DNA of 60,478 bases, counting the filler, from Hausera hauseri (lineage: Eukaryota), in NCBI GenBank assembly GCA_046269625.1. It is 10 parts of 10 records of this genome, joined end to end, with 100 filler letters (N's around TTAATTAATTAA, not from the genome) between each part and the next. Parts side by side here need not be neighbours in the genome. Positions count along the whole stretch, not along the records: positions 27,065 to 32,024 come from JBJURY010377925.1; 9 more parts are not named here. One strand, 5' to 3'. Position numbers and translations under genes: made by a program. This document shows, in pieces, positions 13,080 through 47,270 of the stretch. The stretch's first letter is position 1; each line of letters opens with the position of its first letter. The notes below the pieces were generated by a model. The model saw nothing but the letters and a program-made list of their open reading frames with translations. It made no database searches and had not been told where the DNA came from.

Positions 13080-13981
13080 GAATAAATGAGACTTTTCAGA
13101 CCACCACATTGAATAATGAGTCTATTCGCTTTTTTGTAGTTTTTTCGCAAACCTTCGAGAATGGAAATAAATCCTCAATTTAAATCTTCATTAGGCCATT
13201 CAAATGCAGAAAACTGTGAAATGTTCAATTGGTTTATCAATTTCAAAACTTCATCATAGAAACTTTTTAGTTTAACTTGATAATTTGAAATTCTTTCTTT
13301 GCTATCATCGAAATCAGATTCACAGAAATAATTTTGTGTTGTAATTTCAATAGGTATAGATATTTTTCGTGCAGTATTTTCGAAAAAAACAGCAGTTTCC
13401 GGTTTGTAACTGCTTTGGCTGAAAATCTCACCCTTTTCACAGTCGGATAACTCACTAGCACCACCAGACTTGTGTCTGGATGTTGCTGGAAGAGCAGAAC
13501 GACTCTTTCCAGTTTCAACTTCGAATGTTAATTTTTTATTCAGAGGATATTCCTGCAGATGTTCGAGAGATGACATTCCGGTGGTTAATGTATACGAATT
13601 AGTACTTTGGTGGAAATGATTTTTCGGCAACGATTCCAATCTCTGACATGATCCACTGCCTTCCGTATATGACGTTGATCACAAACTTTCTTTACTTGAA
13701 TCCATTTCGAACAATTCCTCATACTGATGAATCGTTTCTAGTGCCAAATGAAACCCACCGAAGCCACTGCCGTCAGACTCATTTTCATTGATTGATACCA
13801 TTTTCCCTTTCCCTTGGTCCGTACACGACAAATCCAAATAAACGCGAGCATTGTCAGACACGTGAGGAACTTTTGAATTTTCAGATTTTATTTTATCTTT
13901 TTGAATTGTCAAATTGGCATCACTCTGACTTCGTTCCCAATTCAAATTATCAACGGAATTTTTTTTCGATTTGTTGAGCAC
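13080..13981 (-). pseudogene. Unknown reading frame between TRAF and gag, split by single stops
   Basis: ORFs 13679-13981, 13175-13639 and 12932-13150 share one frame; contains LTFEVETGKSRSALPA, which resembles a retropepsin FLVDTG..S.LP strand. Confidence 0.45.
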
Positions 13982-15240
13982 GTAACAACAAGGGTATGAG
14001 TTCTATGTTGTGAATCGTACGAAACAAAATCTTGAAACAGCCCATCATCGATCGAATGCGCACCACCTGAAATATACAAATTGTTAGACAATGCCTTCAT
14101 TCCAACTGAAACAAGTAATTTCAAAAATGACGCATACTCGTCTTTTTTCGGACGTACATTTTTACAGAACTCGGTAAATGATTCAGGTTGTCTGTTCCAG
14201 TTGTTTGGCCATGTACTGGTAGCAGATGAGAACGTCCAGCTACGGTATATCTTGTCTGTTTTAATATCGACAATGGCTATAGTTACAACCATCGGTATTG
14301 GCAATTCCAGTTTACTGTCAGACGGACCAGCGTGGATATGAAAATAAATTTTCATTCTTCCGACAGAATTTAACTGCATTGCCAGATTCATTTTGTAACC
14401 CTCAATGCTATAAAAACTCTCCGATTGGATCAACTGCAACTTTTGACATTTCTGTGAAAGTTCTGGAATTATCCATTTGAAATTGGCATTAGGAAAATTT
14501 CTCATCGTAGTCTCAGGAACTGATGGATTCTGAACCCTCGAATCCAGTACCAAAGAATGCATTGCACATTTTTCCTCTTCCAACAATTGCACCAATCGAT
14601 TTTCAAATTCTGATCGAGCAGTTCTTTCACTTTCTAATTCCTGTTTCAATTGTTTCACCAATTCTGTTGAACCTTTGTACTGATTTTCCAACTGCTTCCT
14701 TTTCTCTTGTTCTGCATGCAGCTTTATTGACATTAAATTGAGTCGATTCTCCAAATTTCGTATTCCTTCGACAAGCAATTCCATGTGGTGCACATTCATT
14801 TCATCCAAATGCTGACCCCTATTTCGTTTGACCAAATTCATTTCATCACACCCGAATACACCAAAAACGCAGCCAGACGAACGATTTTCACAAATTCGCA
14901 CGTGGGTAACTATTGTCGACAAATCACAAATTTCATTGCACATTTTATGTGGACATTTGACTATATATTTGGTAATTTCTTGAAGTGCTTGTCGATCTAC
15001 TTGTAAATCTTTGGAGAAATTTGATAAATGCTTTTGGCAGTCATCAGAATCTCCAGGACACTTTTTGGCACTGGGTTCGAGATAGTGTTGAATACAATTT
15101 TGGCAATAAATGCAAGAACAATAAGCAATCATAGGGTTGACAGCGATTTGACCACATATTCGGTACAATAAATATTCTTTGTCTTCATTTGGCAATGAAA
15201 ATTCATAACTGGTTAGCAAATCAACAATATCTTCATCCAT
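13942..15240 (-). CDS. TRAF-family protein (degenerate RING, TRAF Zn finger, coiled coil, MATH domain)
   Basis: RICGQIAVNP..CSCIYCQNC..KKCPGD; CPHKMC..HVRIC; CVFGVFGC..H....HHMELL; coiled coil; FKWIIPELS..SESFYS.EGYKM..GPSDSKLELP (MATH). Intronless. Likely ATG at 15240 (ORF track starts at TTG 15270). Confidence 0.88.
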   Translation of the reverse strand: MDEDIVDLLTSYEFSLPNEDKEYLLYRICGQIAVNPMIAYCSCIYCQNCIQHYLEPSAKKCPGDSDDCQKHLSNFSKDLQVDRQALQEITKYIVKCPHKMCNEICDLSTIVTHVRICENRSSGCVFGVFGCDEMNLVKRNRGQHLDEMNVHHMELLVEGIRNLENRLNLMSIKLHAEQEKRKQLENQYKGSTELVKQLKQELESERTARSEFENRLVQLLEEEKCAMHSLVLDSRVQNPSVPETTMRNFPNANFKWIIPELSQKCQKLQLIQSESFYSIEGYKMNLAMQLNSVGRMKIYFHIHAGPSDSKLELPIPMVVTIAIVDIKTDKIYRSWTFSSATSTWPNNWNRQPESFTEFCKNVRPKKDEYASFLKLLVSVGMKALSNNLYISGGAHSIDDGLFQDFVSYDSQHRTHTLVVTCSTNRKKIPLII

Positions 15241-15370
15241 TGAATACTCAAAAATAGCGGAATTATGCAATTATAAAACAATAGTTTTGTAAAGATCAGG
15301 GCGGTTATGATTTGTTGAAATACGACGAAAAAATGTTACCTTGAAATGTACTCTGAAACCAAAATGTTGG

Positions 15371-15568: not shown

Positions 15569-15679
15569 CAATGAACAATATACATTATTTATAAAACACA
15601 GATTCATCTGTCGGCACCGATTTCATCTGTGCGTGCGTGCGCGTATTTTATTCCAAACAACAATGTTCATACGTCCAAC

Positions 15680-18600
15680 TCTTATTTCGTCCCACCCACC
15701 TACTCTTATCATCACTGCATGATAAAGCGACTTTTTATTCATTACCGTATATAGCTGGTGCTCAATCGATCGGATGATTGTTTGTGACACAACAGCCTTT
15801 GATTGTCCTCCTCCGTCTTCTCCTTCTTCATAGACACGGCAATAATCATTGTGGTCGATTTCCGTCTGGGGCATCTGAACGCCTTTTGCGCGCATTTTCG
15901 GTCCGCAGTCTGTCAGGCCTTCGCTTTCATCCTTGAAGCAGCCGATTTTGTTCGTTATGGCGTTGCCATAAAGCGGATGATTCTGAGGGAAATCGGACGT
16001 GCCCAGTAGTCAATCTGCCATCATTTCCGGGAGCAGTTGGTCGCGATTGACGTTTTTCAGCTCAAGGAAAAAGCTGTCTGTGTCACCGGCAACGATACTG
16101 ATCTCACAACCGTCAAACATTTGCCGGTAATGTGCCAAGTCGCGATACTGGAACTCGTACATCCGCAACTTGTTTACTTGTCCGATATAGCTTGGTCGAT
16201 CCAGTACGACTTCTCTCTTTATCAGCACCGCATCCAATCCATCGACAATGTGCATTGACCGCCTGAACTGAGCCTTGCCGGTGTACGTAACCAGCCGCTT
16301 TTCATTGTTACATAGGCGCACATTGAGTCACTTTTTGAGCTTTTCTTCTGTTTTGCCGTAGAGAAAATTATTTTTTAACTAGTAGTAGTCTTTTTTGAAC
16401 TTTGTACAAGCTGCGACTCGCTTCACCGAATTTTCATCTATATACGCTTTGAATATGGGAGCCTGAGCAAATCGGATTGCACGATGCAGCTGTGTGACGC
16501 GTACACCGAACTGCATGTAGAAATGTAGCAGACGCCAATGGACCACGTAATTCAGCTTCGGTTCATTCGTCATAATCCCCTTCTTCACTTTTGAGGCTGG
16601 AGGGACATTGGTTAAATGGTGCGACTGGTAAATCGTCCAAAACGTCATGCAACTCATCTGGTATCTCGAGATCGACATTCATCAGGTATCCGACTAAGCC
16701 TGCTATGTTTGCTCGTGGTAGGTTGACCATTATGTCGTCAAAATATTGCCTGTGAACTACCCATTCGAATGAACTGTACGGCAAGGGTTGCGAAAGCACC
16801 CAGCCGTACAGGTTATTAATATCAATATACAGCATTGATGTGGTCTAGGTGGCGGCGGTAGCACTAACCTGATACTTGTTGACAAATGTCATGCCACCGC
16901 GAATACCAACATCAAACAGCCGATACATTTCCGGGTCTTGCAGCAGCTCAACTTCTCGATCCAGTGACATTACAGCTGACACCCAGCTCATTCCCGGTAT
17001 GGAATAAAAGTTGAGTAGCTCCAACCTATGTTCCGCCAACGTTTTTTCCTGAAAGGCCTGGAACATATTGGCTGATATGTACACGCCCTGTTTAAGATAC
17101 TGGAGTATGAACTCCAACAGGTTTTTACAGCCGAGCTCTGTCCAAGATTCCTGTGCTTTCTGATATTCAGCTTATGTGATGCCTGTCCATCGCGGTGGTA
17201 ATTCCTCTGCTGTCCGGAATCGCTCATATGATGTTGCAAAGTCATATGGAAATATGCCTTTTCTGCGTGCGATATGTGCGGGGAACTGCGTCAGCGCTAT
17301 CGAAACATCTGGCAAGGCATTTGCCAGCTTTGCCAATGATTCATTGAGACATTGCAATAAATCAAGGAAGCGTACCTGGAATCGGTTTACTCGTGCCGAC
17401 ATCGATAGGTATTTCTCCATTTTTGTTGGGATTATGGACAGTTTCCAGTGCGGAAAGCCATTAATTGCCAATTTGAGAATATGGTTATAGTAATAACATC
17501 GGAAATTATGAAAGATCACCGGCAGGAATAACCGCACGCGCTTTCATAAATTGCATGAATTGCATGCTGCTCCCGAGTATCGACCGGTGAAATGGTCGTG
17601 ATACGGTACGATCCGTTCCTGTGCATCAAACGGTATTATTCTGTGGCAGAGATAGCATTCATTGATGACAGCGAAAAGCAACGGTTTACATTCGTCTGCC
17701 CAAATCAGTGGCTTATTGCAATTGTTGCGATACCATGGCGCGATTTCCGTTTCTACTATGGTTTCCAACTGCTACAGGAAATCACGTACACAGTTCCAAA
17801 TATGGAAAACGTAATACTGCGGTTGCCCGGCGGCTTTTATTAGTACTAGCAACATACCGACGACAATTGGAACGTGGTTTTGATCGTATACATTGTGACG
17901 TGTTAGAATTGCTTCGATATCGGCATACACCACATACGCCGGACTGTCCGTTTTAGATCAATCACTGAATCTGAGCTCCGTTTTGACAGGCATGACGTAC
18001 ATTATTGTCCTTGATGCGTTTTGCCTGTATAACGTGACATGTTTCTCCTACGTTGTTTCGGATCTGAATCTATACAGGACACCATTTGCATTGTATTGGC
18101 TTTTTTATGAACTGGTCATACTCCCTGTTCAACAGTCTATCCAGATTTGTCATTGCCACGTAATGAAATTTTTCGGCCTGCTCCAACAGCAGTAAATTTT
18201 CCGAACATCAATTCAGGTTCCGACTACGATAAATTATGTCCACATGGGGGTTCTTATAAATTTCTTCGTCTTCTAGTATTTCAATTATTGTGTTGATTGA
18301 CAGCGTCAAATTGCGCCGTTCAAAAGCCGGAAAAGTTTTCAGTTTCATCGGCATACAGCATTCATAAAATTGCAATTCGACGAAATAATGCCTATACTGA
18401 TTCGAACGATTTGCATGATATTTGTTCACTTCGCTGTACTTCAATACAGCCAGAATACTGTACAGGAAACAGTATTTGTCGTCAGTATTTTGTACATTCA
18501 CTGCCGCCAGAGACTGCTTTAGAGATGCAGGTGTCGGTATGATTGACCGTCCAGACAAATATACCACGTCACCCGACTTTGTTATGATAAAGTCGAGTGT

Positions 18601-18990
18601 GACAATTTGTATAATTCGCCATCTACTACCCTTTTCGGTATAGTTGGCGATTTTCTCATCAAACTTTTCGCTTACATCGGCAATAAAATCTTTGGAATAC
18701 GGTACGGCTCGATGTAACAGACACCATTGTTTCCTGTCACCTTTAACATTTTCAAATTCTTCAAGTACGTAATATTGCACTTTGCAGTTTTTGCGTTTGA
18801 ATTTCTCTACCTCTAATTCAAACCGGCTGCGTACACTAGACGGAACATGCCTCAGCTCTTGTGTTGTTGTCCTCGACATGTTTACTTTCATGTCCACATC
18901 CGATTTGTTTAGATCGTGTGTGACAGAAATAAAAGGTTCCTGCTGCTGCTGCTGTTTAGTACTGTTTCGGAATAACTCGTCAAGACTTGT
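15680..18990 (-). pseudogene. Polinton/adintovirus-type protein-primed PolB, disrupted (second copy)
   Basis: VNVQNTDDKYCFLYSILA, HDHFTGRYSGAACNSCN, PVIFHN, RKGIFPYD, GIRGG, YIDINNLYG, KDYY, VAGDTDSFF, RAKGV; collinear with 6515-9870. Confidence 0.93.
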
Positions 18991-19092
18991 TGAGACCTGA
19001 CGTTTTATGCTTGTTGAGGGGATACTGGTTTTTCATGTCGCCATCACTATTTCCTTTTCGGAGCAAAGAAACTGGTTCAAGTTTTCCTTGTG

Positions 19093-21412: not shown

Positions 21413-24400
21413 TGTAAAAAACAAAACCGTTTAACGGAGAGGTCCTCGGAAGGGAAAGCATGTCCCAGCCAACGACATCATCGGGGCGAAAACGCCGCAC
21501 CCGACTGTCCCCGCCAACATGGGCCACGGGACAACACAGCACTGTGGGCACCACATCACCCCCCCCCCATGGCGCAGCGAAAACTTTAGAGCGAGAAACA
21601 GTAAAAAATGTGCTAAAAGAAGTGTTTGTGTCCTATTCGGTTTTTGTATGTATCAGCAGTTGTACTTTATGGATATTTTGCTCTCTACTGCACTTACTGA
21701 AAGTAACTGCGTGTTTTGTTTGTCTGCCTTGAGTTAGCTTGTAGAGACGTAGGTTGAGGAAAAAAATTGTCGGATTTTACCGTGGGAGTTGTTTTAATTG
21801 TGGAAGGTGAAGGTTGAAAAAGTAAGTTAAACTGAAGGTGAAAAAGGGATGAAAGGTGGAGAGGATTTGAAGGATTGAAGATCGTAGGAAAATTGAGAAT
21901 CTGACGAGGATGGAAAAACATATGAAGTGGAGCAAAATCGGAAAAGTATGTTTTTGAAGAAAGTTGCAGATGTGAAGGAACTTGCGTTTTTAAAAAAATT
22001 GCGAAGAAGAATCGAGGGAAACTTTGCCTTCAAATGGAGGTCGTGTGAGGCTAATTAAGTTGGTTGAATTGAAGTAGCGGCAAAGGAATCAAGAAAAGTA
22101 GCAGTAGAGTTGGTGTTGGTTTGTGTGTCTTCAGGACAATCATCAACGAAAAAGGCTGGTTTTAAGTTGTGATGTGTACCTTTTGTTCTTTGCCACTTTT
22201 AAGAATCGTTGCCGTGTGAGAGGATAAAGAGTGTGGTTTGAACGGTCAAATGTATTGTAGCTGAAAACTACTGGGTGAAGGATTACGAAACCAGACAAAC
22301 TTAGCAGAATACAGATCATCTGATATGTTTGATTTGTTCTTATTTACTATTGTACAAAATGAATTCTTGTTTTGTGCTACAAAGTGATCTTGCGCATTTC
22401 GAATCAGTTCGTCTGTCGGTGTATCATTTATATCAATTAACTCATAAAGTGTTCGAATAGTTGTCCCAAACAATGCTTCAGCTGGTGCACAACCCATAGT
22501 GGTTGAGGGTGTATTTCGCCAACCGATCAAGAGAAGAGGTAGGAGAGATGTCCAATTGCTTTGTGATTCAGCAAATATTTTAAATGAGGTCTTCATTGTA
22601 CGATGGAATCTTTCCAGTAAACTGTTTGCTTGTGGATGATATAGAAAAGTGTGTATATGCTGACCCCTAAACGATTGACTAGGAATTTAAACAGTTTTGA
22701 CTCAGATTGTGGACCTTGGTGGTGATGAAGCTAGGTGAAGATTTCAACGGTTTTCAAACTTTCGCGTAAATGGTTAAATTGATGGACAAGTTCAGACATG
22801 CAGTGAATTGATTGTTTCTTCTTTTCAGACTATAAAAATGCAAAACGGTGCGGTTAGTTCAGAGCAATGTGGCATGTCTTTGTGAACAAAATGGAGTGCG
22901 ACAAGAAAAAGACGCATTTTTGTTGTTGTTCGTGGCAGTTGGAACCGCTGAGTTATGCGGTTTTGTTGAGAAGAGTGGTCAGATTTGGTGATGACGTGAC
23001 CAAGAGAGTGGGTTTTGTGTTGAAAAAAGAATATTTGGCAAAATTTACTTCTAGATTGTTTTGGTGAGGGCGTTGAAAAACTTACTTAGGAGATGACGAA
23101 GCAATGAGTATGTTGCCAATATAAGGAAATGCGAAGTTTAAACCATGGAGAACTGTGTCAATGTACCGTTGGAATGTTTGCGGGACACTACGGAGATCAG
23201 AGGACATGAAAACATATTCAAAAAGGCCGAAAGGTGTTGTCACAGCCATTTTCGGTATGTCATCAGGTGAAACAGGGATTTGATGGTAGGCTTTATGAAG
23301 ATCGATGGACAAAAATATTGCGCTGCTATGGAGTCCATGTAGAATGTCATGATGGAGTTTAATTAACGATAATTACCACAGGGCCTGAAAGTGCCGTCCT
23401 TCTTGGATACTACATGCAGGAGTGCGGCCTAAGGTGATTCTGATCTTCTTATGATTCCTGCTTTTACAAATTCATTGAACTCCAGTTCTACAACATTTCG
23501 TATTCGTAGAGAAAGTGGTCTAACCTTCTGTCTAATTAGCCTTTGGTGTCTGTTACCATGTGATGATACGTTGTAGATGCAGCCTTAAAATTGGGATCCT
23601 TCTTTAAAATTCTAGGACAAACGGTTGTGATGTAGTCACGAAGGACTACATCCAGCTGCATGAATGTAGGGGAAAATCGAAAGATCGTGTCAGTATTGAA
23701 AATTGTTTTCGTTGTTATTGTATGAATAGGATCACCTCAACCTGGGTTGTTAACATTCAATTTATATTTTATGTTAGGATTTTTTATCACGGACTTTGGC
23801 AGTATAGCCAGCTGCGCGATAAATGGTGCATTATCTCGTGAATCTGTATGATTTATTGTATCTCTAATCACACGAAGCCGTACGAAATCGACCAGCAATT
23901 GCAGTGGGATAAAAAATCAGAACCTAAAATTGGTGTTTTTATACTTGGAACAATGAACTTCCACTGAAAAACATCAGAATAATGTCGTAGGGTGTAAGAC
24001 ATTTCTGAAGTAACGAAAATGCACAGTGCTTGCACATTTGCGGTAGAGTTTAATTGACGTAGAGAGCATTTTTAGTGATGTTAAAGATAAAGGCAGTAAT
24101 GAAATAGCTACACCTGAATTGATCATAAGTTTAGTATTGTGTGAAAAGGACGTGAGTGCAGCATCCTATAAGGAAACGCCATTGGTTGAAGTACGGCAGT
24201 CAAAACGACAGAGATGACCTTTGCCAAAAGTTTCCGCAGTTTCTGGCGGCTTTACGCGTTTTTTTGATTTAGTAAAGCAGAAGTAACTGAAGTTTTCTGG
24301 GAGTAAAACGTACATCCAGGCAAGCAGTGTTTTGCACTGTAATTGAACTTACTGTGGTAGATGCAAACTGCATCGTGTGACTGGAAATGCTATGTATGGA

Positions 24401-26964: not shown

Positions 26965-27064
26965 NNNNNNNNNNNNNNNNNNNNNNNNNNNNNNNNNNNN
27001 NNNNNNNNTTAATTAATTAANNNNNNNNNNNNNNNNNNNNNNNNNNNNNNNNNNNNNNNNNNNN
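26965..27064. other. Artificial contig linker
   Basis: 44N-TTAATTAATTAA-44N. Confidence 0.99.
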
Positions 27065-29420
27065 TTCGCGGTTCAAATCTCCAGCGACGCAGTATTTGTG
27101 ACCATATCGTCGTAAGTGTTTCCGTAACTGATGACCCTTGGCTGCTACGTTGGTCTCTGTGAACTCGACAATTTGTTGTATAACCCGATCTTGTATTTGT
27201 TCCACAGCAATTTTCAGTGCCTTATCCAGTGTGAGGATCCGTTGTCTCTCTACTAAGTTTTCAAGGGCAGCTCTTCTCATTACTGTAACTGCGCTTGTTT
27301 TCGTTTTACGTCTCGATAATGCATCAGCGTCGACATGTTTACTTCCGGGCTTGTATTGGAACTCGATATTATATCGCGATATCTCCTCAATCCATCTGTT
27401 GAGTCTACAAGTTGGATTATTCCCTCTACCTTTCAAAGTCGTAACTGCCTTATGATCCGTAACGATTACGATCTTTTGTCCGTAGACATACATTAAAATG
27501 CCGCGGTGCTTCTTTAACCGCCAGTGTTTCTAGTTTCGTAACAGAATAGTTCTTTTCTGCTTTCTTCAGAGAACGTCCCCCGTATGCAATCGGATGTTCC
27601 AACTCTTCGTATTCTCGTTTTTGGGCCAGCTCATAGCCAATACATTCCTTGCTGGCGTCTGTTTTGATGATGAACGGCGGGTTAAAATCGGGATATCTTA
27701 AAACAGGTTCGCTAGTTAGAATTTTCTTCATTTCATCAAAGGCCTTTTGTTCAACATCGTTCCATTTCCATTTAATCCCTTTCTTTAATAAGCGATATAA
27801 GGGTGCTTTTATCTTTGATTTATCCGGTACATAAGTGGCATAATATTCACACAATCCCAATCAGTGTCTCAATTCTTTCTGATTCTGGGGTTCCATACAA
27901 TCCGATATTTTACTTAATAATGATTTATCCGGTTTTGATCCTCCTTCTCCAACTATATATCCAAGGTATGATACGGCATTTTGAGCCCATTTGCATTTCT
28001 TGGGATTCATCTTTAATCCAGCCTGCTCTAATCTCATGAGCGTACCTTCGATATCTTTTAAGTGATCCTCTTCCGTTTTCGAGGCAATCGTGACATCGTC
28101 CAAATAGGCGAATGCGTGTTCTAGTCCCATCAGCATCTTATTCATCATACGGGTAAAGATGGATGGTCCGGTAGTGATTCCAAATGGCATAACATTAAAT
28201 TCATATATACCGTCATATGTCTTAAATACCGTTTTGTAACGATCTTCTTCCTCTATCTCTGCTTGCCAATATCCAGATTGTAAATCGAGCGTAGTAAACC
28301 ATTTCGCTCCCGAAAGTCTGTCTAAAGCTTCCTTTACTGATAGTAATGGAAAAGAGTCTTTCATCATCAGTTTGTTTAACGCTCGGTAATCGATACAAAA
28401 GCGGTGCTTACTGGTGCCTTTATTCTTAACCATTAGTATAGGTGAATACCAAGATCGATAGCTTGGTCTAATTATATCAGCCTTTAACATTCGTTCGACT
28501 TCCTTAGTTATCTATGGCCTTAGTGAGAGTGGAGGAGCATACCATTTTGGCATCTTTTGATCCTCTAAGTCTATTTCATCGTTAAGTCCAGGCTTTTTCT
28601 TAAGCGGAATCGTAAGTCTTAAGGCTTTAGCTCGGCCAATGTCTTCTTCATCTTTCGCAATAATTGAGCTATAGCGAGAAAGTAGTTCATAGAACTGGCA
28701 ATATGCTTCTGGCGAAAATTTTATCTCAACGTGGGGCGGAAATTCGCCACCATTATACGGTTTTTCCTCAATGATAATTGATGATACTCTATACGTATGT
28801 CCCAAAGTAGTATTGGCCTAAGGTTTGATCGGAGTGTATGCGTTATTCGCTATCCTAATTGGTACACGACCTGCTGATACTCTCGTTAAAACGTTGCTGA
28901 GTATAAGATTCGGATTAAGCGATTCGTTCAGCTCGAAATATACTGGTTGATCGTCATCTTGTCGTATTTGAGCTTAAATTAATAATTCGGTTCTGGTTGG
29001 TATATTTTCGTCTATCGGAATCCATACTTCTCCTAATTTTCTATCTTTAGTGGTTTTAACGCCTTTTATTGGACCAAGTTCTATTAATTTACATGCATTC
29101 AAATCGATTGCTATATTGGGCAATTGCCTCAATAAATCACATCCTAACACTACATCATCCGTTAATTGTTCAATTACGGAGAATCCGTGATGAAGAGACT
29201 GTCCCATTATATGGACTTCTGGTTTCCAACGGAATTTACTTTTTGATGATTGTCCGAAAGCTCCAGTGCTACCTGAGTCAGTCGTGGGAGGTGGATACAA
29301 TTGTTTTCGTAAAAACTGTGGTATCGAATCATATTTTATTAACGATATTTCGGATCCTGTATCTATTAGTGCATAGACTTCGCAGTCTTCCAGCTGAATT
29401 TTTGCGAAGGGCCTCCCTTC
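27065..29420 (-). pseudogene. pol: pol: retropepsin, RT, RNase H
   Basis: ALIDTGSEISLI (29355-29363), VVLGCDLL; RFCIDYRALN, LDLQSGYWQ, MPFG, AYLDDV (~28100); KTDAS, PIAY, EKNYSVTKLE, TDHKA, HVDADALSR. Confidence 0.93.
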
Positions 29421-30109
29421 GATTATCGTACCGTAATAGTTCGATTCTTTATGGGGCTGTCGGACCATAGATACTTTATAACCGTTTATAGTGACTTCAG
29501 TAGTTCCAACCGGCTGGTCTACTAATTGTCTCAATTCTCCCATAGGGTATAGTTCGTTATTCGTACCGTTCGCATTTTTTACTTCTTGGCTTCTAACTGG
29601 CGGCTGAACATCTTGATTTCGGAAATTGCGCGTCTCACAACTTCTGGTAAATATTGACTGCATTTCATTTGGTTTAGGCACTCTAGGCGAGTAAATTATA
29701 CCATGGTCGTCCCTTGCTGGACGACGATGTAGAGCAGACGTCTTTTCCGTTTCACGGATCTTACGCAATATCCCGTAGCGTTTGGTTCCTTCGTAAGGAT
29801 CTTCTAGATTGAATGGCTTTCGATAGAGGTCTGTCTGGCATGAACTTATAGATTGCTTCTCGCAATATTCATATATAGGTGCCATTAGCGGCAGTATCGG
29901 CAATGGTAGTTTCATAACAGAGTAATTTTTGTGCCTCTTTGGCCTGAAAATGACGTCTCCTCCCTTAGGCTCGTCATCATCAGAATTATGTCTTCGCGTC
30001 TTACTCTCTATAACTTTTCGCCTGTAATTAAATAGGCGTCTTTTGCGTTTTTGATTATGGTAACCAACGTGTCGTTCTACCTCTGATTTCCATTTATTTT
30101 CTTCATAAG

Positions 30110-31940
30110 CCTTTAGGAATTTACCAAAAGGAGTAATAAGGGCTGTTAGAATTTTGCATGAAAATCCCGTCAATGTAAATATCTTGTATCAATTTATAAC
30201 CGCTTGAATTATCGCTTTTATCAGTTGAATCAAGAAGTATATTGCTAGAAATCCTGAGGCGGCTTGTCCGAATATCGGGAATATTCCCTAAATTTTATAT
30301 GGTATTTCTGTGGTTATCTTTTTGTAATAGCTCACACCAAGTAATGACTCCCATTTTGCTTGGTAGCGTGAATCCTCTAGTATAGTATGCATCGCTCTAT
30401 TCAATTCATATGTGCGCTGACGACGAAAAGCGAGAAATTGTCTAAACGCCTCTACTTCTTTTGGTCGGTAAATACCTTTTGCTGCTGTATCTTGAAATTT
30501 ATCATCAGTTATTCCTTTTACTAAATTTGTACCTGTTAGCTTGGTAGGTGGTGCAGTAATACCACCATTGGGTAAACTTACCCAGTCGGTTTCACTGCGT
30601 CTAAACATCGGTTCTCCTAGACTAGTTTTACAGTCTCTTAAAATGGTTGGTTGAGTGGCATTCGTCAACAATACTCTGGTAATTGGTGTTGCTAACCTTG
30701 GTATGTCTTGATATATTACCGGAAGCTCTTACACACACCTCTTTTCTTTTACATTAATCGGTACGTCTTTCTTTTCGCATTCATATGTCAATAACACCTC
30801 TCCGGTTACTCGTCCAAAAACACCTTCTTTCATCTGAATTGTTGGTGGTGCCAACTCAGGGTTTGCGTATATTAGAGCTAATTAGTTCTCATGATTTCCA
30901 GATCCAGTTTACAATCGTTTGTTATCATTTTACGGTACAATTCGGCTATTCCGGCTTGTCCCTTATAATAGAAATAATCGTCTCTGTTCTTCAAATAGTC
31001 TTCGATTCGAATGTCCTAAATCTCGAGTTTGAGCGTTCTGGCGTTTATTTCGGTCTCGGCTATAAAAAATGCTTCGTAGTTGGTGGCATACATTACAACG
31101 TCGCATCTAGAGAGCATGTCTTTCTTTATAAATTCTAATCCATGATCATCAAAAAGAAGTATTGTAGGTGTGGATTGTTCGGCTACGTCTTCTCGTGTTT
31201 TAGAGTTGGTTTCCGTACTAGTTATGTACCGTTTTCCCGTGGTCTCGTTGAATTTCAGTTCTTTAATTCTAATAAAATTACAATCAGTCTTGGCTGGAGG
31301 TTCCCAAATTACTACGGCATTCCGGAATGGGCATGTGCCATCCTGGATATTACATTTGTGGTTCTCGGTGTAAAGCTTAGTAACACAATGGAACATCACT
31401 TTCTGCATACGCATTTCGGTTTCATAAAAGTCTACCACTACTACGTTCGGCTCTAATCCTTTCCGGTATCATATTCTACGCCTTGGCAATGTCCCGTGTG
31501 CATGTCTAGCCTTCCAGCCGCTACTTTGTATTCTCTGACTATCTTCCCTTTCTGTATCTCTAGTTCCATTCCATCCCATTTCACTCTTTCCGTCTCTATT
31601 GCTTGCTTACAATGTTGTCGTTCTAAATTCATAGGAATTGGTGGAGTCGTCGGTTTGATTATTGATAAGTGTCCGTGTGTCAGCGCACAATGGAAAATGC
31701 TGCGAGATCGTCGCAACATACATTCTACCCCATCTAATGCAATTAGTTCACGTTGTTGATATAATACGTAATTGTTTTCTTTTGTTTATAATTTGTGCGG
31801 TCTCGCGTCTTCACACGTTTCTAAGTCCATTAGTGAGTACTTTTGTCCGAGTCTAAATTTGTCACAATCATATACAGTGACGGCGCCTATCTGTCTTATC
31901 AGCATCATAATGGTCAAGAGGTTGATTAGCCATTTCGATT
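30110..31940 (-). pseudogene. env: Chuvirus/herpes-gB-like (class III-type) envelope glycoprotein
   Basis: Hydrophobic leader KWLINLLTIMMLIRQIGA|VTVYDC, SLMDLETC, RSIFHC..GHLS, AAG...CQGVEY, CNIQDGTC..VIWE...C, RCDVVMYATNYEAFFI, TRVL..C..PMF..W, AKGIY, then FGQAASGFLAIYFLIQLIK TM; this Cys/motif order matches my recollection of chuvirus-type glycoproteins. Confidence 0.75.
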
Positions 31941-32024
31941 CGTTTCTTCTGCGGTTTCCGGCTACGTTTCGTAGCAGGTCACCGAGTCTGTTGTTGTCGA
32001 AGAAAAATTCTCCTTTATGTTCTT

Positions 32025-32124
32025 NNNNNNNNNNNNNNNNNNNNNNNNNNNNNNNNNNNNNNNNNNNNTTAATTAATTAANNNNNNNNNNNNNNNNNNNN
32101 NNNNNNNNNNNNNNNNNNNNNNNN
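32025..32124. other. Artificial contig linker
   Basis: 44N-TTAATTAATTAA-44N. Confidence 0.99.
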
Positions 32125-36591: not shown

Positions 36592-39290
36592 CTATCAGGC
36601 TCTGGACTGTGGCCGTCAGGTGTGATGACGTGACCAAGGAAATGTACCTTTTTCTGAAAGAAGGAACACTTAGAAAAGTTCACTTGCAAATTGTGGTTGT
36701 GCAAGCGTTGGAAAACTAGTCTGAGATATTCTTCATGTTGTTTGGGCGATGCCGATGCGACTGATATGTCATCAATGTATGACTATATAAACGGCAAGCC
36801 TAAAAAAACTGAAACAATGTGTCGTTGGAAAGTTTGTACTGCGTTCTTTAAACCAAACGGCATGAATGCATATTCGAAAAGACCAAAAGGTATTATGATG
36901 GCCGTTTTTGTGATGTCTTCTGGCGCTACCGGTATTTGGTGGTAAACTTTTTTGAGATCTATGGTAGAATAGATTGTTGTCTTGTGTAAAGAATGTAATA
37001 TATCTTTAATCAAAGGTAGAGGGTAAGCGCCCATAATAGGGAAGTTATTAAGTTGGCGATAATCGCCGCATTGACGGAATGTGCCACATTTTTTGGGAAC
37101 GACGTGGAGTGGTGATGCCCAAGGTAATTTCGAGTGTTTTATTATGCCAGCTGCAGAGAATTCCGCTTGGACTGCCGTCGACGGCGTGGTGAAAGTGGGC
37201 TGAGTTTCTGCCTAACGGGCTTAAAATTTTCTGTGATGACATGATGAAACGTCGTGTTAGCCGGTCGAAATGCTGGGTCTTTTTAATAGTATGGAAACAA
37301 GACTTGACAAAATATTGTTGCATTTCTTGGCTGAGCGTAGTAAAGGTTTGATTGACTTAGTGTAGAAAATGGTAGAAATCGGGCCGCCTAAATCGGAATG
37401 CAACAGAAAAGTAGGATTGTTTATGTTGGTTTTATCAATAATGTTTTTATTCACATTGGTTAAAGGTTTCTTCAAAATTGATTTTATAGTTGAGATAGGC
37501 TGCATGATCGGTTGGTTATTTGTAGGGGTCGGCTTTGTTGAACTGCTTTTAATGACCCGACATTGTTTACAATCTACAAGGAGGTTGTAGAAAGATAAGA
37601 AATCAGACCCAAGTATTGGAGATTGTGTGTCGGCAACGATGAATGTCCAATTGAAAATGTCGGAGAATGGTTGTAAAATGAATGAAATGTTCCACGTGCC
37701 GAAAATGCGTAAAGCTAGCCGTTAGCCGTGTGCAATTTTGTGCTAGATGGAAAGATGCATAATGTTTTAATAGATGGTGATAATATAGAAACAGTTGCCC
37801 CAGAGTCAATTAGGAAGTTGATTGATAAATTGGATTCGGAAGTTAGAGGCTTTCAATGTAAAAACTGTATAAGTACGGCTATCATGATGAAAACGTTTGC
37901 CTGTGCCAGCATGTGCCCAAACATCTGGCGGCTTTGAGTTTTTTGGAGGCACAGGATTTATGTTGTTGGAAAGGGTAGGTCGTGATTAATTAAATCGGTT
38001 AACGAAAGTGCAACCTGTAACCCAGTTTTGTGCTTTAAAATGGAATTTATTGTGCTAAATGCAGATAATATCAGACCGTTTTAAATGGGGAGCACAAAAT
38101 CTGCAACCTAAGCAGCATTTAGTCGAGTTCTTTTTGAATTTGGTGTGGTAGTAACACACCACTGATCGTGTGGGTGATCTTGTATGCCTTGAATTTTTAA
38201 ATGAAGTGCGGCTATGGTTCCGATCGAAATGATTTTGTCTAGGCATGGTCAAAGCTTCGATTTTTGACGTGAGTGCAGAAATTGCTTGATGTATGTTGGA
38301 GTTTTCGGCATGTAAAGTATTTATCTGTGAGTTCAGATTAGCTATGTCTCTAGATTGTGGAATTGTTGGTGCTTGTAACGTAGCGGCTACTAATGGGGCT
38401 GCATGTGCATGTAATATCTCGTGGCTTTTGTCAGCCATTTGTACTAGTTTTTGTAGTGATGATGTGTCCTCTACTATGGTCAGCAGCGCACGTATGTCTC
38501 TGGATAAACACCGCAGAAAATACCTTCGTAGTAAATCGGAGTTATTTGATTGATTAACGCCAACGGTACTCAATTGAGTTAGTGAGGTTTGGAGAAATTC
38601 TGAGGGTTTCAATGCGCTTATGGTGTTGTCGTTAAAATATTTATGGATGGTGTCATCCAGAGATGGTTCGGTAATTTTTAAAATCGAGTTAGTGTTTTGT
38701 ATGGGTCACTACTTTGAAAATTTTCCGACAAGTTAGGAAGCTACGATTTAATTTTGGAAGGCAAAAGTATAAGCAAGCTGTTTGCTTTAAGAAACGAGTC
38801 GACAATATTTGACTTAAATCAAGCCGCATAAAAGTCCAACCACGTCCGGCTGGAATGTTGCCTCTCAAGGAAGTATTCTAAGCAAGGTAGGTTTACAGTA
38901 GACGACGGAGGTAGAATTGAATTTAACGGTACACTTACAGTAGGTATGTCGGCAAAGTTTTATTGATCTTTAGAAGATGCTTTTGGATCAGATCCACCTA
39001 GCAGACGGTAGTGTACGATGAGTATAGGTCTTGAAGATGAGTGGGTGTAACTTGTTATAGTGTCAAATTGTCGGAGAAAAATCCATTATAACTAAAGCAA
39101 AAATTAGCGAGTTGTTTTTCGCCGTAACGCATCTGAAAAATTTGCAATTATTGTTGATTTGTGTATGTAGTAGGTTTGCGTATGCTTATTTTCGAATAAT
39201 AATACGAGAAACGAAAATATCACATAGGTCTGGCGTGCAGTGTGGTGCATAAGACATGGCCGCGCCCAAAATCACTAAGTTGTAATGACT
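36592..39290 (-). mobile_element. Degenerate Ty3/gypsy element 5' half (gag, protease, RT)
   Basis: gag 37940-39060 (KPSEFLQTSL..CYYHTKF..KCCLGC); NFLIDSGATVSIL ~37790-37817; RT YPLP..IDLKKVYHQIP..PFGLFEYAFMPFGLKNA (36783-37034); possible LTR end TTACA at ~39281. Confidence 0.9.
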
Positions 39291-39399: not shown

Positions 39400-40466
39400 A
39401 CTACTGTACCCTAGTTCGTCTGTCATTGCAATTTTTTGGTTAGATCCATGCATACATTTCTGACATGTTTGACACAACACTTCAAATCATGTTTGAACAT
39501 AAATCTTGATGTTCTGCCGATTTCGCTGGTTGATTTTTTTTAAGTTCCGAGGCCCAATAATGACCCGACTTAACCAAGGAAATATCCATAAATTCAGTAG
39601 TTTCAGAAGTATAATCCAAAATGAGCTTATGAAGTTTACGCATGGTATTTGCAATGATCAAATAATTTGCTGAATTTTGATTCATAGTTTGACGAATGTA
39701 ATACAGGAGGATTTCCTTTATCTGCGCTGTCAGAGGATGACTGAATAAAATCCATCGAACCTCGAATGGGCTATTTTCACAACAATAATTTACAATTGCG
39801 GTGCAGCCAATATTTTCTGTTAGATATGATTATTCCTCCGTTCTTTCTTTAAAATCCCCGTTCAGAGGTGGATATTTGTAACTGCGAATGTCGTATAATT
39901 TTTCATGAAAATGCTCACATTTCTCGGAATCTAGCCACACCTCTTGCAGCTAGACGAAACCATCATCAATAACCGTATATGCCAAACGAGCTAAAAGCGA
40001 ACTACCATTCCGCGAATAATCAACTGCATCAAATGTTGGTTGACAGTATGCTGACTTCGATATTGCAGAATTAACTGAAACCCCCGAATTGCTATCATTT
40101 GATGGATCTAAATGCACTGGGTAATTTGTTTCGATGCATTTGTTGGAATATTGTGCCACAGCTACCAAAGAAATCCCGCTGAGCTCTGATCTTGGTTTCC
40201 AAATTATCTTCATTGACTTTAATGATACAGATTGTTCTTTTTTTATTGAGTATCATAGATTCGGTGTCAAGTTTCAACAAATCAGAGTATCTCTGAACTA
40301 GCTTTTCGTTACAGTGACTTAAGATTCGATCAATTACGTCCTTATTTAGATTGGACTTAGCAAATGAAGATGTGCTGGGTGATCGAAACAGTTTGTTTCG
40401 GGTTGTACGTGATAAACTGATTGTGCCATTTAAAAGTTTGAGATATTTGTCGCTTATCAGCATCAC
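39400..40466 (-). pseudogene. Frameshifted continuation of the ZFYVE26/spastizin-like segment
   Basis: PTFDAVDYSRNGSSLLARLA and HPLTAQIKEILLYYI...RKLHKLIL resemble spastizin ALAFLKSRSKLLATVA and WPLESCLEILAYCI...RKLAEL (from memory); split over several frames. Confidence 0.5.
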
Positions 40467-43400
40467 AAAACGATTTGTATTTCATCATAAAAGATAAGTT
40501 GCACTGTAACTCAGTGAGTAAACATTCTGGAGTATAAATATTTAATGGTGGACTTGATGCAGTTCCATTAATCATTCCAAAAATAAGTAGCGTCTGTAAC
40601 GTACTTCCATTAACCCTATATCGCTCCTCCAGTTGATTAGCAAGAAATGGTACTGAATTTTTCAAATCAAAATCGCAAAATGTTACATCTGGAATATTAA
40701 GGAAACATTGACTGACTTGATCAATACTAATGTTTCCCAAATTACCAATTTTGTAAGAGAATCCACATTTCAAAAGCTTAGAATTCAGACTCCGATATTT
40801 GAAAGTATTTTTTTCTTCCTGAACTGCTAAAATTAGCATATGGATAACCATAATATTGTGAAGATTTAAAAAGAAAGCTGCTTTCTCTTCATTGGAATTT
40901 AATAAATTCAAATCCACATGAACCAGATCCATTATATCTATTGCTGAAAATGTCTTCCAATCGTCTTCATAATAAACGGTGGATATTGCTTTACAGTTGA
41001 CCTCTAGAATTACCGATGAAGGTTTTACGTAGGCGTTATCGGGTTTTGATAAGTATTTGTAAGAGCTTTTAGTCGATTCTTTTGATTTAGAATTTCGCAA
41101 AGATTCTTTGGCTGAATCCTTTGTTCGTTGACTTGATCCACTAGATGTGGATGAAGCTGTGGAAAATGCTTGAAATGACGACTTTTGTGATTCCCGTTGA
41201 TCTATTATAAGCGTCGTATCGCCGTCATAAAATGGTAAATCTGACAGATTTGAAAGAGAAGAATTTTTCATTAATAATTTGATAATCGTTTTCAAACAAT
41301 TAGTGACAACTGTCAAAGGATTCAATGTAGTTTCAGAATCAATGACTTCAGCAGGAACATTGTATACAAAGTTTTGATAAAACCGATGAGATTCAGCAGA
41401 AGAATTATCAATTGTCTCAATGCAGCTGATATGCGGAAGGCAATTTCCAAGAATAACTTCGGAAACATTTAATCCCAATTCTAAACATAATTGTTGTATT
41501 TCAGTGCTTTTAGGACTAATTGATTTGAGTGGAGATGTTTTTAATAAACTAAATTCGTGACGTAATTGGGGTGCTGTACTATTTGATACATTTTTATGTT
41601 TTCTTAAGAATGTTACAAACGTTTCAAGATGCACATTTAACAAGTCCAAATACAAATGAAAATCCCGACGCAAATACCTGTACGGAACATTATCAATTTC
41701 AACAAGCACACAATTTTCCTTAATAAATTGTATGAGAATTAGAAGAGAATCCCAACGACTGTCAGAATCCGAATTGAGATCTCTATTATTAACACTCTCA
41801 GTAATATTCGAATTTAAAGACATGAAATTGAATCGAAGTTCATTGGACCACTTTTGGAAACTGACGGAATATTTCTGATCGACAATGGAATGTAGTTCCA
41901 AATCGGCATATGTTATGTGATCACTTTCGTCAATATTTGCAAAGCATTCCTTAAGCTGTTTAATGACAGGACTCAACCCAACGTATCGGTGGTATTGTAA
42001 CTGATCCGAAGATTTTAAAACCTGATCATTTAAATGGGGAACATCTAGCGACTGTAAATGTAAATCAATTTTTTTCAACATCTTTAAGAATTGCCATCTC
42101 GTTTTCGAACCGCAGATCATAATGTCAAATAGAAGACCAGCATCAAATAATATCTGGTCGGTATTTAATTTCGTTGCATTCAATTCTGAATTCTTGAGAG
42201 TTGGCCTGTCTTTCGAACTCAATGTCAATAGCCTGTTTGCAAACTCAGCTATTTCATTTTCCGTTTTCGACGCTAATTTTCGATTCAAATTTGAAATATC
42301 ACCCCAATTAAAATGACCGAACTCAGTTGATTTTGATTCAGTGTAATCGGTTTCAGAATTTTGCAGTACACCATCTGGTGGTTTAAGAGCACTAAGATTT
42401 TCTCTGAAGTTTTCAAAAGTGTCTCTATATTTGATTTCCGGTAACAAAACTTGCAATGATTCAATCGGTTTTGGTGAAACATTATTATTCACCACGGGTG
42501 GGGGGACACACGATGGAGCTAAAGATCTAAATACATTAACTCGAATAGCTTCACTGAGACCAAATCGGACGCAACCGATCATTTTATCCTTCATTGTAGG
42601 CATGTATAAATTAACTGTCTTTATGATAAAATCAATGAGAGTAATACTCACATTGGAATACTTGGTAAGGTTATGCATAATGGCCAAAATGGCAGGTTCA
42701 ATATCCATAATACAATCGTATTTGCTATCATAAAATAACCAGTCATAAATGAGCGCTAATTTACAATTGGCAACAACTGTTGATGACGAAGCCTGGACAA
42801 TTAACCAGGATATTGTCGCCCATTGAGAAATCAATGTAGACCCGATCATTTCGTTATCGGGATAAAAATAACGAATAATGTATCGAATCAAAAACGGTCG
42901 GAGATTTTGACTTTCCGGTGTAGAAAAGAATCTTTTGCTAATGAAATCCTGATATTTCTTGTATGGATTTGATGAACAGTGATGGACATTTCTCATCGTC
43001 CATAAAATCCATGCTTCCATATCATATTGTATTGATGTAGATATGATGTTTTTATTAGTTCCAATGCTAAATATATCACTGACATTGGTAAACTGGTTAG
43101 ACATCGATTCAATATTCTGGCAAATATCGTTCCAAAGACCTTTAAACTCTGGAATATTGGACACCTGTTGAATCATAAACATCATATCTCTCCCACCCGG
43201 TTTAAAACACTCATCAAAATTGTTTTTAATGATGTCCAAAACTAAATTGATTTCTTTTCGACATAAACGAGCAAGAGTATTGTTGGGAGTATGCGACAAT
43301 AATTTTCGGTCTTTAATAATTGGCTCTTTATATTCTTCGATGAGATTGAGCATGTTTTCTATTAGCCATAAATTTGATTGTGTTAAATCACCCGATATCA

Positions 43401-46400
43401 TCCGTTTAAATGCAGAACTAAATAAATTTTCAGCCCATGGAGTGTTTAATAAATCTATCAAAAGATTGAGAATATTTGATCGCACGTCATTAGTAATTCG
43501 ATTCCAATATTTGATTTCCGTTAACAAATCTTCAAAAAGATCATTGGTTGGTGTCGATTTAAAAGTTTGTACTATATCACCGGCTTTATTCTTGAACCCA
43601 TAAAGTAGTGTTTTCATGGTTAAATATTCAATAGGCTCGACAATCCATTGCATACACATAAAAAGGTGATGACTCATTCTTTTACTTTGAAATCGTTTAG
43701 CTTGAGTCTTCATATGGATATAAAGTTTATTTCGATCATTATTACTGCAATTATCACATTCACAGCTTTTTACCATACCACAATAGGTTTTATCAAAATG
43801 CTCGCCAAAATAACCAAGAACCTGAGATCGTCTACAGTCAATTGAATTGTCACAGAAAAAGGCCATTTCATAAAGTAACATGAAATTCTGACATTTAAAT
43901 TCAGGCGTACCGTTACTCATATTTAATAATGTTTTCCATGTTAATATGTCCGACCAATTGTAGTACAGCACACAAACAGCTGGAAGACCATCTCTTCCAG
44001 CACGTCCTGTTTCTTGATAATATCCTTCCAACGATTTAGGTACCGAATGGTGAATAACGAATCTCACGTCTGGTTTATCAATACCCATACCAAATGCAAT
44101 TGTAGCACAAACAATTTTACAATCGCGTTCGTTTAGCCACATTTTCTGAATTGTTTTCCGTTGAACATTAGTCATACCTGCATGGTACGGCTGGGATTTG
44201 AGACCAGCTTTTTCTAACTTGTCAGACACAATGTGACAGGCTTGACGACTCAGGCAATACACAATTCCACTCTGATCGTGGAATTTCGTTTTAATCAAAT
44301 GAATTATTTCTTTCATACAGTCACGAGATTTTTGATGAATCTCCCACCGTAAATTTGGTCTATTAAAACTTTGGATGAACCATTTGGCGTTTCTCATTTT
44401 CAATTGAACGATTATATCTTGTCGAACTTTTCTTGTAGCTGTGGCAGTCAAAGCCAAAATCGGAACGGTTGGAAATCGTTCACGTAGACATCGCAAGCTG
44501 CCGTGATCCGGCCTAAAATCATGACCCCACATACTGATACAATACGCTTCATCGATAACAAATCGATCGAGGAGATTTCGCTTGTACAGCGATTGAAAAA
44601 TTTGTAACACCCGTTGACAAGCTACAATCTTCTCTGGAGTAATATAAATCAATTTAATATCCATTTTGTCACTTTGGAGAATGTCTAGAACAGTATTCAC
44701 TTCCTTTGTAGATACATCTGAAGTTAAGGATTTCGCGTTAATGTCAAAACTCTGAAGTTTCATCAATTGATCGTGAACCAAGGACTTTAGAGGAGAAATT
44801 ACGACGGTGAGACCATCGGTTACAATACTTGGTAGTTGATAAAACAAAATTTTTCCACCACCAGTCGGCATCAAAACGAATGTATCGAACTTTAACAAAA
44901 CCGAATTGATTGCCGCCCGTTGATTTCGACGGAAATATTTTAAACCGAAAACCTCTCGAAATGCTTGCATCATTTTCGGAGTATGGGGAAAATCTTTAGA
45001 GAATTCACCAGTTTCACCATCGTTTGGATGTTCTTCTATTGAAGTAGCTGCATGATTGCACTGACTAACATTTGTCCATCGATTTTTGGTAATGGGCACA
45101 AACGTGTCACCATCCATATTAGCGCTTCGCTTTGTATTTTTCAATGAAATTTCTTCAAAGTCTTTTAACATGAACGAATTGAAAATAGAATCGTTTTCCC
45201 AACAGTCTTCATTTTTCAGTTTTGTTGACGTATTGGAAGAAAATGTATTGAACGTTTGTCCGAGAATGGCGATCAATGAATTATTCAAATCGAAATCGAA
45301 TGGTTGCGAATGACTCGTAAAAAACTGATCTAAAGTGTCCAAAATAATCAAATAATTCTGAACTGCTACGGAATTTTTCATGAACAGCATCCAACACATA
45401 TTGAAACTTAAAATTTTGAGAACTGTTTTGGAAAATCGATAGCCTTTTGTTTCTTCAAAATTATTGGAGCGAGAAGTACAACTGTAGAATCGTTTTTCCA
45501 AGCTAATAAGACTCATCAAAATTTTTGCCATTTTCTTAGACGTTGTTCTGTCTCCACGAACAAGATGTTGATAAATCATTGATTCCAAATACGCTGTGAC
45601 GGTAATAAGTAATTTTAAAACTTTCTCACTCCTCGGTTTTAGATCATTTAAGTACATCACTATTATAATATCGAGACTGCATCGAATAACCAATGGTTTT
45701 GGTACTTTTGATACCGTTTTACCAACCATTACTTTTAATAATCGTTTGTGGAATTTCGGATTCCTTAATATTGCCAGTCGCTGTGATCTTTCATTATGGA
45801 CCGAGAGAGATGGTTTGATGAATTTACGTAGCGCAATTGACAGAGATTTAATATGGAAGAACGAGGCATCGCATTTACCGTATTCAGATTCTTTAGCACA
45901 TGAATCGGGAGAACCAAGTGAAACCCCACTAGATTTTGAAGGCAACGCTCTCAATTTAATGTAAATTGCATAGTGTCTGGATCTGGACTTAATCAATTCT
46001 GTACTGGTCATTGGTAAAAATATCGGAGTTGTCGCTATTTCGTATTGAATGAAATCCAACACTTGATTCAGCCGATCAGCAAAATCTTCCTGTTCGACAA
46101 CGAGCAATTCCGGAATTGCAGGGTTGACAATCGAAATTGGACTATCTGTCTTGTCCAACAATTTACTTTGAGGTTTAAATGAATTAAGATCACATGGAAC
46201 AGAATCCCCAGAGTGATGGAGAGTCGTCGATTTCTTTTCATTGCGCTTATCCGGTACAATGGAGTAGAAGGCTAATTCAACATTTTCAGACATGAGACAC
46301 ATTCGATCCATGTCAGCAAACACCATTATGCTCAATAATGATTCCGGAAGTTCTTTATTTGAAAGAATTTTCATACCTAATTCAGCCATTGATTTTAAAA

Positions 46401-46656: not shown

Positions 46657-46671
46657 TGAATAACAAATTGT

Positions 46672-47270
46672 TGTAGTTCAAAACACAAATTGACTTTATT
46701 TATTGATTGATTCTTGAATACAATATTTTTATATTTAACACTAAAGCTGAATGTTCTCTTTGTTTGTCTTCTGAAACAAATAAAAATCTTCCAGTGTGGC
46801 CGAAGCCAAATCTGTGCAAAAAGTCTCATCTGGCAGCGACACCAAGCCGTCCAGAGAAATGTAGCCGGGCTGGGTCGGGTCATATTGAGCCTTTCCAAGA
46901 TACTCCAGAAACAGGTGGCGCTCTCTGAGACGCAAGAACTTAGTGTTGAGCACCTAAATGCAGAAAGTGGAGTGTTATTTCTAAATTTAGATTAAAAAAT
47001 CAGTTTCAATAGACACTAAATGTACAGAGGAAATGAGAGATATAGGACACTGTAGTTGATTTGCCTGTCAGCAGAGTTAGACTTAGTTCTTGAAGTGCAG
47101 AAAAGGACAACAGTAATGCTACAGTCTTATAATTGTGCATCTTGCTTGTAGTCTGTGGCTTTAGTATGCATCCGTGGTCATTTTCTGGAGTGGCCATTCA
47201 CAGCCTAGTGATTAGTAAATGAAGTAAAGTTATTAAAATAAGGAAAAGAAAATGCACAGAATGTATTACA
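46672..47270 (-). repeat. Possible LTR-like element immediately upstream of the mosaic ORF
   Basis: Minus strand ends AATAAATAAAG...ACTACA at 46672 and may begin TGTAAT at 47270; no matching target-site duplication. Confidence 0.3.

Follow-up and report, generated by a model that had tools for sequence, protein, structure and literature searches.

A decayed Ty3/gypsy element of Hausera hauseri with a gB-type envelope gene upstream of, and in frame with, protease, reverse transcriptase and RNase H

In this study we focus on a retroelement from the genome of Hausera hauseri (assembly GCA_046269625.1), present in a 60,478-nucleotide stretch of DNA, hereafter the window, made of contigs joined by N-spacers. 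The element occupies one contig, JBJURY010377925.1 (positions 27065-32024), and carries an envelope gene (env) ahead of, and in one frame with, the pol region encoding protease (PR), reverse transcriptase (RT) and RNase H (RH). Its features, from the env end to the pol end, are the following.

27065-32024, minus strand: the whole contig, an inner fragment of a decayed Ty3/gypsy env-pol element without long terminal repeats (LTRs); both ends are contig ends, next to N-spacers at 27021-27064 and 32025-32068, and all 30 bins are covered by many divergent contigs in public runs X1 and X2
31453-32022, minus strand: env piece 1, with 31 open codons, an internal signal-like segment, the start of the ectodomain and one internal stop (PF24664 profile positions 6-159, E 2.1e-14; 34% identity to residues 109-268 of relative P0007)
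31873-31929, minus strand: internal signal, the first hydrophobic segment of env (Kyte-Doolittle (KD) 19-residue window maximum 1.78; counterpart in relatives)
30878-31468, minus strand: env piece 2, past the first frameshift, with one internal stop (PF24664 profile positions 196-346, E 3.3e-5, below the curated cut-off; blastp to P0007, E 4e-27)
30075-30881, minus strand: env piece 3, past the second frameshift and in the frame of pol, with the C-terminal ectodomain, transmembrane (TM) helix, post-TM segment and three internal stops (PF24664 profile positions 353-611, E 2.6e-28)
30195-30251, minus strand: env TM helix (KD maximum 2.18; found in 12 of 12 relatives examined)
30126-30182, minus strand: weakly hydrophobic post-TM segment, downstream of the stop at 30189-30191 and conserved in relatives (KD 1.48; 1.01-1.71 in 12 relatives)
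29421-30110, minus strand: basic, proline-rich linker of about 230 residues, with disorder predicted beyond its first helix (no Pfam or PDB match at E 10; Gag profile -2.2 bits; predicted local distance difference test score (pLDDT) about 25-30 over most of it)
29121-29417, minus strand: retropepsin, with the DTG catalytic motif at 29355-29363 (PF00077, E 2.2e-5; model pLDDT mostly 73-91; Foldseek matches to the Ddi1 retroviral-protease-like domain (RVP) and HIV protease, best E 6.5e-7)
27951-28427, minus strand: RT, with YLDD at 28095-28106 (PF00078, E 6.3e-35)
27371-27764, minus strand: RNase H with a frameshift near 27490 (PF17919/PF17917 in both frames; tblastn frame change at 27492/27490)
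27065-27370, minus strand: spacer between RNase H and integrase (IN), the contig stopping just before the integrase zinc finger (residues 14-152 of P0004 align to 1761-1901 of P0007, whose Integrase_H2C2 starts at 1915)

From 30881 to 27452, one minus-strand frame contains only seven internal stops in about 1144 codons (beginning at 30731, 30290, 30191, 28976, 28820, 28514 and 27863), against 99 and 88 stops in the remaining two minus-strand frames of the same interval, which places a shared frame far beyond chance. Translated with X at the stops, this frame matches Pfam families in the order PF24664 (Monjiviricetes_fusion, residues 5-269), retropepsin (489-587), RT (819-977) and RNase H (1040-1135). 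A first-pass annotation of the window had described five open reading frames (ORFs) sharing one frame, env then pol, and all five were located in a common minus-strand frame, extending from stop to stop over 30288-30728, 28974-30188, 28512-28817, 27861-28511 and 27450-27860. Its statement that the frame is broken by point stops only holds from 30881 to 27452 but leaves out two frameshifts in env, and the frameshift in RNase H near 27490 adds to its account. Env before pol in one frame is thereby confirmed as a real feature. An Rfam scan of the window gave no match.

The N-terminal two thirds of env sit in two other frames (32022-31453 and 31468-30878), which amounts to two frameshifts and two further stops. 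The three env pieces are nevertheless collinear on the 653 positions of PF24664, indicating a complete env interrupted by the two frameshifts and by several stops. The fold was modelled on the intact relative P0014, which aligns to all three pieces with 27-30% identity; its env gave an AlphaFold model with a mean pLDDT of 83 (87-row alignment), and all listed Foldseek matches of this model were herpesvirus glycoprotein B (gB), the best being herpes simplex virus (HSV) gB with E 2e-14. Pfam and the model of the relative both support the upstream protein as a homologue of class III (HSV/gB-type) fusogens, in agreement with the gB-like env first proposed. A PDB sequence search with an env piece returned a single chance match (E 0.93). 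No furin motif was found in the env pieces, the two matches both lying after the TM helix.

The signal-like segment comprises residues 32-50 of env piece 1 and is separated from the contig edge by 31 open codons. The signal had been described as internal, with a frame open to the edge; the frame is indeed open and the relatives agree, but by our own arithmetic 31 codons would stay open by chance about 7-8% of the time at an off-frame stop density of about 8%, so that the open upstream frame is weak alone and convincing only with the relatives. At the other end of env, a single strong TM helix followed by basic residues is found in 13 of 13 sequences, namely the window and 12 relatives.

Among PDB entries, the RT-RNase H region matches Ty3 RT best (225.8 bits, E 7.7e-66), followed by entry 8r0s (186.6); the best retroviral entry, p80 RT, scores 109 bits and HIV-1 about 35, in a comparison containing no BEL RT. 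By these sequence matches the region is of Ty3/gypsy (Metaviridae) type. The order PR-RT-RH is seen in the window, and IN follows RH in six relatives, the contig ending about 14 residues short of the integrase start in P0007. The interval between PR and RT aligns with the relatives; it has no Pfam match at E 10, a dUTPase-like segment included, and low model confidence. The stretch contains one protease.

Copies of the element were followed in the two public runs that contain the stretch, with contigs matched at 80% likeness and contig depth giving no copy number; no RNA run was listed as containing it. In these runs, 19,357 and 2,194 contigs cover the 30 bins and most are less than 95% identical, which points to many divergent copies. 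Four indels are listed across the element, none in the linker; 15 of 99 joints were shown, all of them single-contig events except one seen once per run. Between 30090 and 30340 neither indel nor joint occurs in X1 or X2, and both stops beside the TM helix are private to this copy, being absent from 98.7% and 99.4% of the depth in X1 and from 100% in X2. A natural stop after the TM helix was rejected. The same interval holds 18 listed positions, 11 polymorphic among copies and seven private to this copy. Third codon positions of the env-pol frame account for ten of the 11 polymorphic sites, three of these past the post-TM stop (p 1.3e-4 in a binomial test against one third), and for none of the seven private sites, which are all first or second positions. 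Such a third-position bias, together with private changes outside third positions, indicates that the family is under selection for its coding frame and that this copy has decayed. Private decay makes up most of the top 40 differences over the whole element, of which 27 lie in frame (13, 9 and 5 at codon positions 1, 2 and 3), and these differences are uninformative on selection. The env-pol fusion is a trait of the family, not of this copy.

With a query made of the env C-terminus, the linker and the protease, a HMMER search of 1.84 billion proteins gave 213 matches, 150 of them listed, and 22 proteins (17 chosen by rank or length and five cluster members) were scanned with Pfam. A word-index search with the env-linker-protease region of the window matched no near or longer protein, and one with P0006 retrieved P0006 alone; in view of the HMMER matches, these blanks stem from the index. 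Stop-free ORFs running from env through PR, RT, RH and IN were found in six of the 22 (P0006, P0007, P0043, P0115, P0155 and P0158), P0012 runs from env through RNase H, and six more have env then protease (P0005, P0008, P0009, P0010, P0015 and P0160). A CCHC or Retrotrans_gag match precedes env in five relatives (P0006, P0010, P0013, P0015 and P0043), and the window and all 12 relatives examined have none between the TM helix and RT. The frame is open across TM helix and linker in all 12 relatives examined. The gene order of intact relatives and the fusogen nature of the upstream protein had been set beforehand as two refuting tests, and both came out for the first-pass interpretation; in the intact relatives env precedes pol within a single ORF, with Gag first in several. 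The window env groups with polyprotein envs in a clade of 11 rows (95/93), and the envs of P0077 (integrase before env) and P0042 (DUF5641 before env) lie outside it. The RT-RNase H of the window is 42-47% identical to that of seven relatives. A tblastn search across the window found no P0043-type gag, no second env and no match to the post-integrase domain of the relatives, and a search for relatives of the locus among viral contigs and genome contigs found none.

The relatives show further features of their own. Five of the six full-length ones run on past integrase in frame (P0006, 2257-2557; P0007, 2486-2740; P0158, 2592-2901; P0115; P0155). Two hydrophobic segments, set a few hundred residues apart, mark these extensions, which may represent another membrane protein at the polyprotein end; they gave no Pfam match and no mutual alignment of their segments, and they are not mentioned in the literature consulted. 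Several ORFs (P0005, P0007, P0008, P0010, P0015 and P0155) hold multiple retropepsins, with two to seven DTG-like motifs each; Pfam finds up to four retropepsin stretches per ORF, some of them downstream of integrase or upstream of env. P0006 (HBK71150.1) is filed as a hypothetical protein of a Flavobacteriaceae metagenome-assembled genome; it is an entire retroelement polyprotein and likely stems from eukaryote DNA in a bacterial bin. P0058 has immunoglobulin domains ahead of a PF24664 fusogen in one protein of 1000 residues.

We consider it highly probable that the contig holds a dead member of a Ty3/gypsy family with many copies, whose gB-type env stands before, and in frame with, PR, RT and RNase H, likely as part of a Gag-Env-Pol polyprotein of the kind described for the planarian Burro elements. 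Since the contig ends before Gag, we infer the 5' part of the element, with Gag upstream of env, from the relatives. In such a polyprotein, Gag would be synthesised in the cytosol, the internal signal would then send the ectodomain into the lumen of the endoplasmic reticulum, with signal peptidase probably freeing Gag, and the single TM helix would stop transfer. According to the predicted topology, synthesis of linker and Pol would continue in the cytosol, leaving both as a tail on Env, from which retropepsin would cut PR, RT-RH and IN free. Unless other RNAs are made, the ratio of Gag, Env and Pol would be about 1:1:1, and Pol would enter budding particles tethered to Env, not fused directly to Gag. 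The second, less hydrophobic segment (KD 1.0-1.7) probably runs parallel to the membrane; if it crossed the membrane, Pol would be luminal and useless.

A number of observations weigh against this interpretation. The contig ends before the Gag, integrase and LTRs of the element, and no listed run contig reaches from env to protease, continuity being obtained by tiling. The env fold comes from P0014 and not from the window env itself. In some relatives the post-TM hydrophobic segment has a KD as high as 1.5-1.7, compatible with another pass through the membrane, and the linker has no alignable counterpart in any relative compared. P0077, whose env is more distant, keeps the ordinary order with env after integrase. 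Finally, both trees place the window on a long branch (1.4 and 1.79 changes per column), which leaves its exact placement unsure.

On a bolder reading, which we consider rather improbable, the element represents a compact, very abundant, long-branch single-ORF Gag-Env-Pol lineage, in an animal group without earlier report, whose Pol is packaged as a cytosolic extension of a class III fusogen and not as Gag-Pol. If true, this would be a distinct assembly route, seemingly never tested.

Equimolar Gag and Pol are unusual among LTR elements, and the same single ORF might be expressed with Pol mostly bypassing Env, either from an RNA spliced from gag to the linker or protease or from an internal promoter in env or the linker, the full Gag-Env-Pol being a minor product. 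Internal promoters driving env are known in Tor elements (PMC4402516), and the linker, which is unconserved among relatives, holds five in-frame Met codons before the protease. However, a separately made Pol would let stops build up past the tail of Env, whereas the frame is open across TM helix and linker in the family and in the 12 relatives, as read-through predicts. We regard predominant bypass as rather unlikely, and it can coexist with an Env-tailed Gag-Env-Pol polyprotein.

The linker also bears on a second alternative, an ENV-GAG-POL order in which it would be a short, divergent Gag. From the end of the TM helix to the catalytic Asp there are 278 residues, and residues 259-480 contain 43 Lys and Arg against 29 Asp and Glu. 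The linker had been described as basic, about 250 residues long and without a Gag knuckle; it is basic and residues 259-480 contain no CCHC motif, but its length is closer to 230. The basic character and Gag-like length would suit a Gag, and ENV-GAG-POL elements with a short GAG are reported from two oribatid mites (PMC13524379). Against this, a profile built from the Gag regions of three relatives gave the linker its negative score, compared with 43.7 and 13.1 bits for two held-out Gag N-termini, and the searches of Pfam and PDB at E 10 found no match to it. The linker is moreover predicted as coil at the low pLDDT given above, a weak argument as there is no alignment depth there, and relatives in the env clade carry Gag upstream. 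The env-gag-pol order, which we judge very improbable, was rejected on the failed Gag profile and on the position of Gag before env in clade relatives.

That the arrangement is a chance product, in which a deletion, a tandem insertion or a misassembly joined the 3' env of one pol-env element to pol from another copy, would fit a fragmented assembly, a decayed copy and the few single-contig skips listed within the element, but it is the least credible reading and was rejected, as no integrase or LTR remnant lies between env and protease, the frame is kept, contigs of both runs cover all 30 bins with no dominant joint, the third-position bias extends across the junction and intact relatives have the same order.

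Other contigs of the window hold unrelated features. A stop-free ORF of 2106 residues (40357-46677, minus strand) combines a RecQ helicase, Ints3_N and DUF547 and lies upstream of, and on the same strand as, a decayed gypsy-like element (about 36597-38705); it possibly represents host genes captured and fused by a retroelement. An intronless TRAF-like ORF (zf-TRAF, MATH) is found at 13942-15270, minus strand. A DNA polymerase B type 2 fragment (7896-8342, plus strand, E 9e-6) has look-alike pieces at 15623-16009, 17172-17543 and 47774-48148, recognised by eye, and at 18208-19032, without a Pfam match; together these are probably decayed Polinton-like elements. An ORF of 374 residues (48317-49441, minus strand) has no Pfam match at E 1e-3, and by eye its motifs recall what we take to be those of a CRESS-DNA virus Rep. 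Decayed gypsy pol fragments of other families occur near 3962-4288, 10235-10441, 22468-23536, 36597-37145 and 55409-58333, and tblastn found no env alongside them in the window.

Continuous ORFs of this kind are reportedly also present in nematode endogenous retroviruses (NERV) of Chromadorea, which have an RT clade of their own, in the order gag-env-pro-pol. The closest described systems are Burro and GYPSM1, giant gypsy-like LTR retrotransposons of planarians in which a single ORF encodes Gag, an in-frame Env and then PR-RT-RH-IN (Arkhipova and Yushenova 2019, PMC6431247). Burro Env matches mononegavirus fusion glycoproteins, and the polyprotein, of about 5000 residues, carries BCL2-like, MATH, BIR or ankyrin cargo, as well as a dUTPase-like segment between PR and RT detected by HHpred (PMC6431247). 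The comparison with Burro was made on these described features and not by direct alignment of a Burro sequence. The window element resembles Burro in having env in frame with pol in one ORF, and its closest database relatives carry Burro-type cargo, one of them in a single ORF of 4844 residues: P0014 has a Bcl-2-like domain before env (Pfam E 1e-3, below the cut-off) and P0155 an ankyrin. This Bcl-2-like helical domain stands directly before env in P0014 (9-70) and P0005 (50-141), which align with each other there at E 1e-10, as in Burro. In contrast, the window has no detected cargo between TM helix and protease, only one protease, and no dUTPase-like segment detected by Pfam, where the Burro study used HHpred. 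No BCL2-like, MATH, BIR or ankyrin cargo was found by Pfam in the stretch of the element, whose contig ends before the upstream region. The text of PMC8532177 contains neither Burro nor env as whole words.

A further set of similar elements, from Nematoda, Bryozoa and Platyhelminthes, comes from a survey of GAG-ENV-POL elements whose env is of gB type (Chary and Hayashi 2026, PMC13524379), which also cites the flipped env/pol order of NERV (Sacco et al. 2022). Among the surveyed elements, Smed_errantivirus_1-6 (Platyhelminthes_C1a) share with the window element the gene order, the gB-type env and the Ty3/gypsy pol. The six Smed env rows in supplementary file 2 share motifs with P0005, P0007, P0014, P0158 and the window, and the bryozoan and nematode rows look more distant from the window env than the planarian ones; both resemblances were judged by eye, the trees containing no named Burro or Smed sequence. 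The terms 'in frame', 'single ORF' and 'polyprotein' have no match in the main text available to us, where env-pol as one ORF is thus unstated. Compared with the Smed errantiviruses, the window element is decayed and divergent, its RT-RNase H having the identity given above even to the nearest relatives compared. As in gB-type errantiviruses, it has a class III env located upstream of pol; Gag motifs before env are present in five relatives and absent from the linker, and the contig ends before the Gag region. Chuvirus-glycoprotein BEL/Pao elements and ordinary gag-pol-env gypsy elements with a gB-type env have the fusogen family PF24664 in common with it (P0042, P0077), but differ in that env follows integrase and their envs fall outside the clade of the window.

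The novelty that the first-pass annotation implied for this architecture does not stand, as it was already published for planarian Burro in 2019 (PMC6431247), and elements of GAG-ENV-POL order with a gB-type env were surveyed in 2026 (PMC13524379). With the gene order already in print, our finding adds a member and not a category. No experimental study of the processing of a Gag-Env-Pol polyprotein was found in the literature searched, subscription papers excepted; how such a polyprotein is threaded, cut and packaged is a fair question, for which a broken and truncated copy is a poor subject. What our work brings is population-level evidence of selection maintaining the env-pol frame through the TM helix in a many-copy family, and intact metagenome relatives showing the single-ORF layout well beyond the giant Burro type. 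The window element is thus a divergent, decayed further member of a published architecture, which works like Burro and the GAG-ENV-POL errantiviruses.

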